From positions 2,080,001 to 2,144,000 of the forward strand of contig CAVXRD010000002.1 of the NCBI GenBank assembly GCA_963764165.1: a stretch of 64,000 bases of DNA. Reading direction: 5' to 3'. This document shows, piece by piece, positions 20,583 through 24,669 of this stretch (positions are counted from its first letter, which is position 1; each line of letters begins with the position of its first letter). Made by a program: the position numbers and the translations under genes. This DNA is from an uncultured Verrucomicrobiae bacterium (GTDB lineage Bacteria > Verrucomicrobiota > Verrucomicrobiia > Limisphaerales > Palsa-1400). Under the pieces are notes generated by a model, which was not told the origin of the DNA, did not search any database, and saw nothing but the letters and a program-made list of their open reading frames with translations.

Positions 20583-22265
20583 GAGACTGTCTCAAAACGT
20601 TTTAGTCTGGCCGATCTGGTTATATGGGCACCAATAGGGGCTGTGGAAACGGGTGTCAACTTTTAGTTGTCAGAGCGTGGCTGGCGTCAGCGATGACGCC
20701 AAGCTTCCCTTTCCCTCCTTTTTTAGGCCGCCATCGCCAAATTTCCTTCAACCGCGGCGGTTTTGACTTCCATTTTCGGCGTCTGGACCCGGGCCTGCCA
20801 CTTTTTATAGAGGATTCGCAGGTTCAAGGTGGCGCATAACAAGGCCCATTGGGCTTGCACGGCTTCCAGACCCCAAACTGTCCAACGCCGAAAGCCGTCG
20901 TGTTGCTTGAGCTGCCCAAACCGGCGTTCGATGATCTCTTTGCGCTTTCCATAAAGCGCGGCGGGTCCTGGCTCTTGCAGCCGGGCCCGCATGGCTTGCA
21001 CCAGCGTGGTGTGCGGCCACACTTCGACTTGCCGCCCTTTGGGATCGCGGCTGCAGAGGGCGCGCACGGGACAGTCTCGGTGATGGCAGCGGAAGCGCTC
21101 AACGGTCTGGCCTTTCTTGGTGGTCTGGCCTTCGTGGTCCAGAAGGCGCTCTTGCGGGCAGGTGACGGTGTGGGCCGCCTCGTCATAATGAAAATGCTGC
21201 GTCGCGTAGGCGTTGTCGTGGGCTGGCTTGCCCTCCGCCGGCGGGGCCAGCACATTCATCTGCTGTTCCACGGCCGCTTTCAAGTCGGCCCCGCCCCCAT
21301 AGCCGGCGTCGGCGGCGGTGAGGGTTGGAATGGCCGCCGGACCGAGGTTTTGCCTCGCTTCTTCAATCATGGGGACCAGCTGGCCGGCGTCGGTTTCCTG
21401 GCGGGTGGCTTGACAGGCGACCATGATGCCCTCCTGGCTGTCGGCCACCGCCTGGGCGTTGTAGGCAAAGCGGTTGGTGTCGCCGACTTTCATCCGGCGC
21501 GCCTCCGGTTCGGCTGGATGGTAATGGTGGCGCCCGTCGGCCTGCAGCTGGGCCAGGCCTTTTTTGATTTCCTCGCGCAGGGCCTGGCGCTGGGCCAACC
21601 CGGCGGGCAGCCGGCAGCCCGGTGCGCTGGAATCCTGGTTCTCCGCCACGACTTTGAGCTCGATTTCCTCCAAGGCGCCATCCAGCTGGGCCAGGAGCTT
21701 CTCCATGTAAACCTTGCTCCAGCCCTGCGGCCCGCTGCAGGCGGCTTGAATCTTGGTGCCGTCCAACGCTTGCAAGGCAAATCCCACCGCCCCGGTGCGG
21801 AGGGCCAGCTGCACGGTTTGCTTGAAAACCTGGCGCAGGGCCTTTTTGTTTCCGTCCCAGAACCGCCAGAGGCTGTTGTGGTCGGGGGCGTTGAGCCCCG
21901 TCAGCCACAGCAGCGAGACATGCTCCGTGCAGGCGGTTTCCAGCTTGCGGGTGGAGCGAATGCGGTGGAAATAACCGTAAAGCCAAATCTTGAGCAGGAG
22001 GCTGGGGGCATAGGGCGGACGGCCTTCGGCGGCGGCGGGAATGACAAACCCAAGCTGGGGCAGATCCAACTGGTCGACAAATTCGCGCAGGAAGCGGGCG
22101 GGATGGTCGGCGGACACCCAGTCCTCCAGGGCGGGCGGGAGGAGGAACTGCTGTCCGTAATCAGGGGCAATCGGTTGAGCCATATTTGTTGAACGGCATT
22201 GTCAACTAAAGGCTCACATATTGTCAAATACATTCCTCAAAAAACAGAAGTTTTGAGACAATCTC
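20583..22265 (-). mobile_element. IS1182-family insertion sequence, copy 2 (1,683 bp)
   Basis: Same IRs as copy 1, 4-bp DR CGCA (20579-20582, 22266-22269), identical transposase protein. Confidence 0.92.
20723..22183 (-). CDS. IS1182-family DDE transposase
   Basis: Identical 486-aa translation to 5009..6469. Confidence 0.92.
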   Translation of the reverse strand: MAQPIAPDYGQQFLLPPALEDWVSADHPARFLREFVDQLDLPQLGFVIPAAAEGRPPYAPSLLLKIWLYGYFHRIRSTRKLETACTEHVSLLWLTGLNAPDHNSLWRFWDGNKKALRQVFKQTVQLALRTGAVGFALQALDGTKIQAACSGPQGWSKVYMEKLLAQLDGALEEIELKVVAENQDSSAPGCRLPAGLAQRQALREEIKKGLAQLQADGRHHYHPAEPEARRMKVGDTNRFAYNAQAVADSQEGIMVACQATRQETDAGQLVPMIEEARQNLGPAAIPTLTAADAGYGGGADLKAAVEQQMNVLAPPAEGKPAHDNAYATQHFHYDEAAHTVTCPQERLLDHEGQTTKKGQTVERFRCHHRDCPVRALCSRDPKGRQVEVWPHTTLVQAMRARLQEPGPAALYGKRKEIIERRFGQLKQHDGFRRWTVWGLEAVQAQWALLCATLNLRILYKKWQARVQTPKMEVKTAAVEGNLAMAA

Positions 22266-22405
22266 CGCAGCGCCGCCCTACTTCAATTTGGCAGGGCGGA
22301 CCTGCGTGTCCGCCCCAATATTCTCCCACTATCAATCTCGCGCCCCGCCGGTGGAAATGCGTTTTGGCGTTTGAGAAACGCCTCAATCAAGGCCAATGTG
22401 ATCGA

Positions 22406-22609: not shown

Positions 22610-22648
22610 TTGCGGCGCCATTTGCGTCGTGCGGCCTGCATCCTTGCA

Positions 22649-24356
22649 GTGCTATTTCGGAAAACTCTTCATTTTTGGCAAAGTTTTAGGCGGCGAGTTT
22701 GGTCAATTTGTCCACGTCCGCTTTGCGGGCGGTCAAGAGCGCAGTAATGGTGGTGCGCCCTTTCTCGGTGACAACATAGCGGTGGGTGCCGCTGACTTTG
22801 GCGATCAAGCCATGCGCTCGCAGGAGCCGCAGTCGGCGTCCAATCCAGCCCATTCTGCGTTTGAGTTCGCGGTCATCGCACCGGCTGGGAAAATAGGCCT
22901 GCCGAATGTCTCGACTGCGAAAGCCGTTGAGGGCGTACTCTCCCTGGCTGACCATTTCCAAAAGGCGTCCGTCCTCCGGGGCCCAAGGATTGAGGGCGCG
23001 GTAGCGCCGCCCCGCCTGCCGCAGGGGCTTGCAGCATTTTTCAACCCATTGGAACAGCGGCACCGTTCCGCTGACGGATCCCAACGCCTGCAAATAACGT
23101 TCATTGGCCCGGTGAGAGATTTCTTTGCGCCGTTTCAGGTCGGCCAGCCCCCGGCGCAATGTCAGCCAGCGTTTGGCCTCCTTGGGCCGGCCTTCCGGTT
23201 TGCGATAAACTTTAAATTCCTCCGGGTGCGTCACCGTCGTTTCGATCCGCAAAACCGAGCCCTGCTTGTCGTAAAATTTGATCGAGTTGCCGTTAAGACT
23301 GTGCTTGACCCGCACGCCCTCCGGCCGCCGTTTGGTGTCGCTGGTGATTTCGCCCTCAAACTGGCCGTACACCCTGCCCGTGCTGATGGGAACGTATCGG
23401 CCCAAAAACCTCATCACGTCCGCGCTGGAAAAGGAACTGATGGCATGGTGAACCAGGCTGGGATAAAGCCGGGCCAGGCTCTCGGGCTCCTTGAAAATGA
23501 CATCGGTGGCATATTCGGTGTCCGAAGCGCTCCAATAGTATTTGAGGTTCAGCGGCTGGCAAATCGACCGGTGCAGGGGATGAACCTCATTGAGCAGCCG
23601 GCCCAGCTCCTTGGGCCAGTCAGTTTGCAGTTGCTGGTCCAGCAGGCCTTGAGCGCGCCCCATATCGGCCACCCGCAAAAAGGTGTTCTCCTTCTTTTGA
23701 TAGGCAATGCCTGCCTGATCCAACTGCTTTCCCAGCCAATGCCGGCCATTGAGGCAGATATTAATCTGGAAGGGAAACCAGGTTTGCAGGCGCAGGTGCA
23801 TGAAGCCAAACTTGGAATGCTCGAAATAGAAATAAAGATGGCTGCACTTGCGCTGCTGAACCTTCACCTCAATGTGTTTGGTTTGGGGGTTTCCGACGAC
23901 TTGAAAGGACATGCAGGGTTCCGTGCAATTGAGAATGGCGATCAGTCCCTCGGTGATTTTATCGCGGGCGGCAATCTTGCGCGCCACCTCCTCCTTGCTG
24001 GTTTGGCTGGAGGGGACGAAAAGAAAAGGCCGCCCGGCTGTTTGTGCCAGGGCCCTGGCTTTGTCTTTGACCGCTTTGGTGGTCCGTTCGACCAACTGGC
24101 TGAAATCCTTGATCAGAATGTGGCAGGCGTTCAAGTAGGCCTCCATCACCTGGGGGCCGTACAACTGGCGCAGCGTCCCGCGCAATCGCAGGCGATCAAA
24201 GCCCGAAAGAACTCCTAGAATTGAGGAAGCATGTTTGTGTACAAAAGAGTTGGAAGCGCCGTCATGGGTAAGCGGTTTGTTTTGCATACATCCAATCTTA
24301 CCCAGACCGGACGGCGCTTTCCTCTTATTTTTGGTTGCGGCTTTGCCGCGCTGTGC
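22649..24356 (-). mobile_element. Candidate unclassified single-ORF mobile element (~1.7 kb)
   Basis: GCAC at both junctions (24353-24356, 22649-22652), GCGGC-AAA-GCCGC hairpin at the 5' end, no terminal IRs, ORF fills the element. Confidence 0.6.
22686..24287 (-). CDS. Putative transposase/nickase with Rep_trans-like motifs and C-terminal winged helix (533 aa)
   Basis: GVLSGFDRLR.RG, LYFY....FG.MHLRLQTWFPF, SIKFYDKQGSVLRIETT, C-terminal LRLLRAHGLIAKV..THRY.VT..G. No DDE or HUH motif seen. Confidence 0.65.
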   Translation of the reverse strand: MQNKPLTHDGASNSFVHKHASSILGVLSGFDRLRLRGTLRQLYGPQVMEAYLNACHILIKDFSQLVERTTKAVKDKARALAQTAGRPFLFVPSSQTSKEEVARKIAARDKITEGLIAILNCTEPCMSFQVVGNPQTKHIEVKVQQRKCSHLYFYFEHSKFGFMHLRLQTWFPFQINICLNGRHWLGKQLDQAGIAYQKKENTFLRVADMGRAQGLLDQQLQTDWPKELGRLLNEVHPLHRSICQPLNLKYYWSASDTEYATDVIFKEPESLARLYPSLVHHAISSFSSADVMRFLGRYVPISTGRVYGQFEGEITSDTKRRPEGVRVKHSLNGNSIKFYDKQGSVLRIETTVTHPEEFKVYRKPEGRPKEAKRWLTLRRGLADLKRRKEISHRANERYLQALGSVSGTVPLFQWVEKCCKPLRQAGRRYRALNPWAPEDGRLLEMVSQGEYALNGFRSRDIRQAYFPSRCDDRELKRRMGWIGRRLRLLRAHGLIAKVSGTHRYVVTEKGRTTITALLTARKADVDKLTKLAA

Positions 24357-24669
24357 CTCTGCGCCTCCGCGCCCTTGCGTTAAAATGCCCCTGCGGCGGT
24401 GACCGAAAACGAAAACAGAACGGGACATGAACGCCAAGACGCCGAGGCCCAAAGGCGTAAAGATTTTGCCGATTCGTTCACATTCCTCGTCTTGTCCATG
24501 GCGAACAATGTGTGATTACCTTGGTTTGACACTTTCTGTTCTCCGGTGCGCAGTTGTGTTTGCTTTCATTGTTGTTGGGGGACAATTGTTGATTTTGCGA
24601 CTTTATGTCGTCATCGGTAAATAGGATTAATGGTGTTGGTTGTAAATCTTTCGAAATGGGCAAAGCTTT

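Follow-up and report, generated by a model that had tools for sequence, protein, structure and literature searches.

The 64,000-nucleotide stretch of DNA analysed here (the window; positions 2,080,001 to 2,144,000 of contig CAVXRD010000002.1, assembly GCA_963764165.1, from an uncultured Verrucomicrobiae bacterium) carries on its minus strand a mobile unit of 1,707 bp, ACAGC...GCACT, running from 24354 to 22648, and it is this element and its single protein that concern us. As the original prediction had it, one open reading frame (ORF) fills the unit (22686-24287, minus strand). It encodes a putative transposase of 533 amino acids (P0001) for which no Pfam, NCBIfam, PHROG or PDB sequence family scored above threshold, and which found only hypothetical-protein clusters, and no named one, in the Atlas. 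A longer TTG-started frame reaching 24452 was rejected because it extends beyond the element end. The left (5') end (24330-24354, minus strand) is made up of 5 nt, a GCGGC-AAA-GCCGC hairpin (24337-24349) and AACCAAA, and the right (3') end (22648-22688, minus strand) comprises the 41 nt from the stop codon to a terminal TAGCACT, for which the family consensus is TWGYANT. The original prediction had drawn the unit at 22649-24356 with the hairpin 3 bp inside its 5' end; both unit and hairpin exist, but the limits needed correction, since the GC ahead of the unit belongs to the target and the hairpin in fact lies 5 bp inside. Terminal inverted repeats are absent, as expected, with 4 of 20 terminal bases matching.

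The unit is almost certainly a transposable element. BLAST located eight copies in the source genome (7.0 Mb in five contigs, designated C1 and so on below), 99.4-100% identical over the hits apart from one hit whose match extends into a similar flank. Within the unit the copies differ at three alignment columns only, one a substitution and the others single-base insertions. All 16 flanks are different and homology ends at the unit junctions, as had been anticipated. The element is neither single-copy nor syntenic: none of four same-genus genomes carries a match and only 7 of 60 related genomes have any, and the neighbouring aminotransferase gene is present in five of five close relatives despite the patchiness of the element. 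Multiple near-identical copies with different flanks and a patchy presence therefore mark the unit as a recently active mobile element. Outside the source genome, near-identical copies with shared, exact ends and unrelated flanks were found in four of the five genomes chosen for having several loci (5, 4, 6+3 and 4 copies); among six other genomes, five hold one full-length close match and one holds two or more.

Single-base insertions break the frame in three of the eight copies, two of which (C2:2226044 and C2:843370 (-)) have one inserted base in common; the explanation may be that a dead copy was moved in trans, or that the two share an assembly error. Two same-orientation copies about 2 kb apart (C2:837993-843370) could form a composite unit.

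The exact boundaries were approached by comparing four models according to how often the 12-mers rejoined by removing the unit recur elsewhere in the source genome. With ACAGC...GCACT and no duplication, they recur for 7 of 8 sites (35 hits), compared with 1 of 8 (2 hits) for a model with a GCAC core and 4 of 8 for each of two one-base variants (6 and 8 hits). The rejoined window site agrees at 21 of 21 bases with a repeat that stands uninterrupted at C3:217881. What settles the matter is that in head-to-tail arrays from metagenomes the terminal T directly abuts the start of the following unit. At natural end-to-start junctions ...TWGYANT passes into NYAGC... with no intervening base, and the circle junction proposed earlier is off by a few bases when set against them. 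Neither rejoined sites nor tandem junctions show any target duplication. The idea that GCAC at both junctions is a duplicated or shared core is ruled out by these junctions, by the rejoined-site counts and by the variability of the left junction, which is GCAC in six of the eight copies and ACAC and CCAC in the other two; after the right-end GCAC the next base is T in all eight.

Both ends are conserved across many phyla. The left-end arrangement (5 nt, GCGGC-loop-GCCGC, AACC) was located by pattern in 70 of 78 testable loci; hairpin plus AACC gives 16 hits in the 7.0-Mb genome and none in a 3.5-Mb order-5 Markov simulation (both strands), and so is not a product of chance. With an AAYC tail as the sole anchor and 12 near-duplicates dropped, 58 of 68 loci yielded a stem, which in one case was spurious. 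Changes on both sides keep pair 1 in two loci and pair 5 in seven, a count that takes in the spurious case, and six loci have a mismatch at pair 3. TWGYANT lies 34-57 nt (mostly 40-47) from the stop codon in 63 of 75 loci, two of them miscalled, in a search whose pattern fixed part of the motif and of the two bases after it. In tandem junctions, these 40 nt also stand directly ahead of 5' ends. The base preceding the element, which no search pattern constrained, is C in 51 of 52 loci. Folding of the 111-121-nt end regions was no better than that of shuffled sequences (z -0.06 to -1.21).

The rule for insertion is C^RC, usually C^RCRRRG in the source genome, and mostly within 9-bp periodic intergenic repeats. 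At the window copy, the upstream half of the target (24355-24385, minus strand) is a GCA(A/G)(G/A)GG-type repeat of this period ending in the conserved C, and the downstream half (22641-22647, minus strand) is RCRRRG; both emerge from the comparison of copies and rejoined sites, which also bear out the claim that removing the unit restores a periodic repeat. C^RCRRRG by itself is common, with 17,984 sites in the genome, and the bare motif RRGNC-RCRRRG is not enriched there (949 occurrences against 936 simulated). A further repeat unit stands 9 or 18 bases away at 7 of 8 used sites compared with 10.9% of all sites, and two further units nearby at 3 of 8 compared with 1.0%, a contrast inflated by the repeat-unit pattern having been drawn from the used sites themselves. 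Relatives are inserted in like periodic repeats of other sequence.

The family is very large. At least 7,801 of 8,000 candidates proved to be relatives of the 533-residue protein, with 6,879 clusters at 50% identity within E 0.001, and a GTDB scan confirmed at least 592 of 600 candidate stretches. The titles of 80 of these name Verrucomicrobiota, Planctomycetota, Acidobacteriota, Proteobacteria, delta-proteobacterial groups, Chloroflexota, Spirochaetota and others, with the proviso that labels given to short contigs of metagenome-assembled genomes can be wrong. No relative was found in viral contigs or phages, and 14 plasmid records contain distant relatives annotated as hypothetical protein or ArsR regulator. 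One of these, a mycobacterial plasmid record (L104, 2194-5656), carries a tandem pair of distant members, each with 20% identity to P0001, separated by a short, duplicated CTAG-like stretch. In the distant branch to which it belongs (L144, L102, L103 and L104, with the motif QY(F/H/L)K..ALR(T/I)E), no GCGGC hairpin is present in the stretch shown and CTAG occurs 27-56 bases after the stop codon; among nine distant members, CTAG falls within 70 bases of the stop in four.

The same ends also bound much smaller units. These mini-elements, of 80-415 bp, often stand head-to-tail in up to seven copies, and the smallest natural element is 81-82 bp. A metagenome scan for a right end joined to a left end recovered 119 loci with 105 distinct junctions, many of them arrays of 81-296-bp units (in one, L203, a 159-bp unit is repeated 7.0 times at 96%). 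A family ORF beside the junction is absent in 112 of the 119, upstream in three, downstream in two and on both sides in two. Long flanks were covered for 80 loci. Scored against the autonomous right-end profile, the 33 bases that precede the searched motif exceed the 99th percentile of random positions in 101 of 118 cases. At the outer flanks of arrays, in positions outside the search pattern, 34 of 35 left flanks have C and 32 of 36 right flanks have AC or GC. The shared ends suggest that mini-elements are mobilised in trans.

In the source genome there is one complete non-autonomous unit of 415 bp (C3:324819-324405 (-)), together with four left ends lacking a right end within 600 bp (C1:1632550, 1070221, 351177 (-), 738276 (+)) and one lone right end. 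Periodic palindromes occur inside several mini-elements (L209, L218, L232), and the interiors of three of the non-autonomous elements or left ends in the source genome hold, on the opposite strand, the repeat that hosts the copy at C2:839699. Another locus (L206) consists of two different full elements in tandem, from which it follows that insertion ahead of an existing left end occurs and that successive insertions, and not only rolling past an end, can enlarge arrays. Some non-autonomous units are longer, at 533-707 bp (L243, L257, L246); they have mixed internal repeats and no convincing ORF, and no gene cargo was seen in them.

An understanding of how the element might move rests on its protein. 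In an alignment of 114 homologues reaching down to 20% identity, P172, E258, Y339, R347 and E349 are invariant, and K337 (113/114), D31 (108/114, with five gaps) and K341 (106/114) nearly so. Y339 (23271-23273, minus strand, as are all residue positions here), the sole invariant tyrosine column, lies in K337-x-Y339-x-K341 on strand 334-341 of the structural model and is the putative nucleophile; the SIKFYDK..SVLRIE sequence pointed out in the original prediction is indeed present. D31 (24195-24197; strand 23-38) and E258 (23514-23516; strand 251-265) are the putative first and second metal ligands, and R347-x-E349 (23241-23249; strand 345-352) resembles motif IV in the Rep_trans motif list (PMC5714925). 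Published descriptions of the Rep_trans site give D, RxD, YxKxxE and W/LxRxE, with the tyrosine on a strand (PMC5714925, PMC6499999). Compared by motif order, without superposition, the protein keeps the sequence D31 (like motif N'), Q/E-x-E258, Y339-x-K341 and L-R347-x-E349, all on strands; RxD, motif II and the E of motif III are unmatched.

The AlphaFold2 model, built from 104 sequences, has a predicted local distance difference test score (pLDDT) of 93.1 and a predicted TM-score (pTM) of 0.79, and places D31, E258, Y339, R347 and E349 on long beta-strands. Residues 12-407 (23067-24254, minus strand) form a TBP-like saddle, the putative catalytic domain. TBP chains supply 24 of the 50 best VIA matches and span the whole saddle (residues ~12-407), the best being 1mp9_A (Z 8.5, root-mean-square deviation (rmsd) 4.0, 179 of 193 residues aligned). 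In a wide fold search, TBP is the sole whole-domain match to this region among 50 (Z 7.8), and the others are winged helices matching residues 409-533 with Z up to 9.6. The C-terminal winged helix that had been predicted is thereby confirmed, at residues 410-533 (22689-23060, minus strand), as MarR-like (Z 8-9.6 to winged-helix chains; MarR 3bj6, E 0.049). Foldseek did return RepSTK1, which the original prediction had named for comparison, with the highest probability of the matches shown (4cij, 0.92), but not strongly: it ranks 13th with E 0.02, TM 0.19/0.34 and rmsd 12.9. In the viral library, the inoviral Rep_trans protein A0A345MNV4 ranks fourth at probability 0.96, and the same Rep_trans protein is matched by RepSNJ2 (PMC13107129). 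No RNase H/DDE transposase, the fold that would have counted against the original prediction, appeared among the matches shown in four fold searches with the full-length model; the one HUH-type entry, the relaxosome 9f12, had probability 0.18.

Together with mobility, these features support the earlier proposal of a rolling-circle or peel-and-paste transposon built on the Rep_trans fold. We put at roughly 0.8 the probability that this is a recently active, autonomous insertion element and that the only protein it encodes is a putative tyrosine transesterase, with a TBP-like Rep_trans/Rep-Arvir fold and a winged helix, predicted to act as a single-strand (rolling-circle or peel-and-paste) transposase. 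The Rep_trans link is supported by the modelled fold, the strand location and the invariant residues, and not by significant sequence similarity. PF02486 and PF05144 match neither P0001 nor 24 family members, and PF25227 matches neither P0001 nor anything else in the source genome.

A number of observations weigh against this assignment. Comparison by hhalign with two Rep_trans alignments, a pooled one with pT181 RepC and a 10-sequence Rep-Arvir alignment gave nothing significant, the best score (P 0.003, probability 9.9%) being equalled by 1 of 30 column shuffles. Motif I is Q/E-x-E, not RxD, and the spacing from Y to E is 10 residues, compared with 20-28 in RepSNJ2, RepD and RelSt3. Structural comparison gave middling scores: the 50 best VIA matches do not include 4cij, TBP Z scores of 7-8.5 are within the range that the tool calls common, and Foldseek rank 1 in the PDB is an unrelated aromatase. 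The circle junction is unlike the CT'AA of Rep_trans origins, its consensus being TWGYANT^RC or ^NYAGC, and the hairpin loops vary with no CTAA consensus. A search for free circles found none, no run holding more than 14% of the words, and at three of the eight loci examined in five relatives for orthologous empty sites, a single flanking gene was found but never both flanks together. The arrays, finally, need not be rolling-circle concatemers, as the tandem of two different elements shows.

Some of these points can be set in context. Rep_trans and Rep-Arvir, which are structurally related families, likewise failed to match each other in the control for the profile comparison, in which the two Rep_trans alignments matched at 95.9%; the negative result therefore shows only that any link is remote. 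In one other genome (G001), both flanks of one copy have matches in two paralogous uninterrupted repeats, and in one of these repeats the length across the joint, as read by eye, is equal. A go-back joint was found in none of four contig sets, which, consisting of contigs only, are no evidence either way.

In the mechanism that we propose, the winged helix would bind one or both element ends, D31, E258 and E349 would hold a metal, and Y339, in the manner of Rep_trans enzymes, would nick one strand at an end and remain attached to the 5' phosphate. Rolling-circle copying would then displace one strand, or that strand would be peeled off; after a cut at the other end it would close into a single-stranded circle with a T-N junction. 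The circle or strand would be joined into a nicked C^RC target with no base lost or gained, and the second strand made by host replication. As the left junction (C^NYAGC) resembles the target, new copies may land ahead of old ones, and arrays could be built in this way or by rolling past an end. The Rep_trans-fold relaxase RelSt3 catalyses strand transfer and needs its helix-turn-helix domain (PMC9371924).

Which end is the origin is a finely balanced question. An origin at the left end, on the top strand, where a nick would be followed by the hairpin, has a little less than an even chance. In IS91 elements the origin lies at the right end. We lean slightly towards a like geometry here, with the origin at the right end on the bottom strand, where YYGY^ANTRCWA is conserved on both sides. 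The origin described downstream of rep (PMC13107129) would be an analogous case. In another genome (G065), the last 44-45 bases of the element are tandemly duplicated in three of four copies (L106, L113, L121), starting at a target-like GCAG in the final ORF codons; this may bear on the choice.

Of the other explanations, the one that survives best, though we consider it improbable, keeps the enzyme class and supposes that both strands are nicked, giving a double-stranded circle by conservative site-specific recombination with an IS110-like outcome. Exact joints without duplication fit it equally well, GT^AC, the right junction seen most often, reads the same on both strands, and there is no leading/lagging-strand bias, four of the eight copies lying each way against a weak GC skew, in a comparison that has low power with so few copies. 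Yet ends and target have no shared core, known Rep_trans-fold enzymes nick one strand, and in some relatives the left stem stays paired through changes on both of its sides.

Slightly less favoured still is the notion of a minimal integrated replicon, or hitch-hiker, in which the Rep-like protein replicates an excised circle and another host enzyme (a repetitive extragenic palindromic (REP)-associated tyrosine transposase (RAYT), or an integrase) inserts it. Such a division of labour would suit a protein whose closest fold relatives are replication initiators and an element that has REP-like repeats as targets and such palindromes inside its mini-elements. It sits poorly with an element that encodes nothing else, with ends and a target rule that are identical across many phyla and used also by the ORF-less mini-elements, and with the absence of relatives from the viral contigs and phages searched. 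Least likely of all is a diverged DDE/RNase H-fold or HUH transposase of a catalogued group (for example an unclassified ISfinder entry), with D31, E258 and E349 as the triad: three acids are indeed conserved, and NCBIfam, one of the databases compared, holds curated families only, but there is no Pfam or NCBIfam transposase match, the N-terminal domain aligns across the whole TBP saddle with E349 and Y339 on strands, the H-hydrophobic-H triplet occurs in just 15 of 114 sequences and in no conserved column, and inverted termini and target duplication are lacking.

Returning to the putative Rep_trans-fold transposase, its nearest counterparts in architecture are the Rep-Arvir proteins (DUF7845/PF25227; RepSNJ2, HRPV-3 ORF9). 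Rep_trans is described as TBP-like, and Rep-Arvir as a TBP-like domain followed, as here, by a MarR-like winged helix (PMC13107129). They likewise have three acids and K-x-Y on strands, Foldseek neighbours in common with the element protein (A0A345MNV4, viral TBPs) and no sequence-level link to Rep_trans; they differ in being archaeal virus and plasmid replication initiators that lie beside other genes, and the available text does not report them as transposases (PMC13107129). With the Rep_trans initiators and MOB_T relaxases (PF02486: pT181 RepC, RepD, RepSTK1, NicK, RelSt3; phage CRI), the protein shares the TBP-like fold, the acid-acid-YxK-RxE order and the tyrosine on a strand. It differs from them, beyond the profile and motif I, in its C-terminal winged helix and in long insertions that put 227 residues between first and second acid; the element has no CT'AA loop, and its gene is alone between two transposon ends rather than on a plasmid, phage or integrative and conjugative element (ICE).

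In behaviour, the element is closer to other transposons. Like IS91/ISCR and Helitrons, it has one ORF, asymmetric ends without inverted repeats and no target duplication (PMC5714925), and also a short target motif and a subterminal hairpin. The enzymes of those elements are HUH proteins with tyrosines on a helix, whereas the element protein lacks HUH, has Y339 on a strand and is of another fold. IS200/IS605 and REP/RAYT systems have a subterminal hairpin, no duplication, short non-autonomous units and palindromic intergenic repeats. The element resembles them in all of these, but their TnpA/RAYT are small HUH (Y1) enzymes, its own protein is a 533-residue TBP-fold one, and its eight copies, low as the power of so few is, show no lagging-strand bias. 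DDE transposons have the terminal inverted repeats and target duplication that are absent here. The element thus behaves like IS91 or IS200/IS605 and fails HUH, has the Rep_trans/Rep-Arvir fold and fails the profiles and nick-site consensus, and so can be filed in none of these groups.

To our knowledge, the rolling-circle and single-strand transposons described so far use HUH enzymes. The Rep_trans fold is recorded solely for enzymes of plasmids, phages, ICEs and archaeal viruses in PMC5714925 and PMC13107129, and a literature search, with subscription journals and bioRxiv supplements outside its coverage, found no such element described. Judged against Pfam and NCBIfam profiles, fold and literature, the family is probably a new transposase class. 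There is a good chance that it represents a very large bacterial class on the TBP-like Rep_trans fold, offering an HUH-independent rolling-circle or single-strand route that mobilises both autonomous elements and 80-bp units. Because its targets include the periodic palindromes borne by the mini-elements, the class may be seeding new insertion sites for itself, and it may explain some of the periodic REP-like repeats found in Planctomycetes-Verrucomicrobia-Chlamydiae (PVC), Acidobacteriota and related genomes.

If the assignment is right, a Rep_trans-fold transposase would bring a further catalytic class into the classification of transposons and provide a second link between replication initiators and transposases. 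The members of this large family are concealed by labels such as hypothetical protein or ArsR regulator. Since the ends are exact, the minimal element measures 81-82 bp, the target rule is short and the candidate catalytic residues number four, the proposal is directly testable, and scar-free insertion could serve as a tool.

Some smaller observations concern the surroundings. Ordinary Rep_trans genes (L147, L148, L149) occur in just 3 of 301 genomes of the source phylum. Approximately 380 bp from the element, the window contains an IS1182-family transposase gene (20723-22183, minus strand; NCBIfam 346.7 bits, cut-off 270), the end of which matches more than 20 places in the source genome. Between the two lies a short palindromic intergenic repeat (22250-22345), of which there are dozens of partial copies in that genome.

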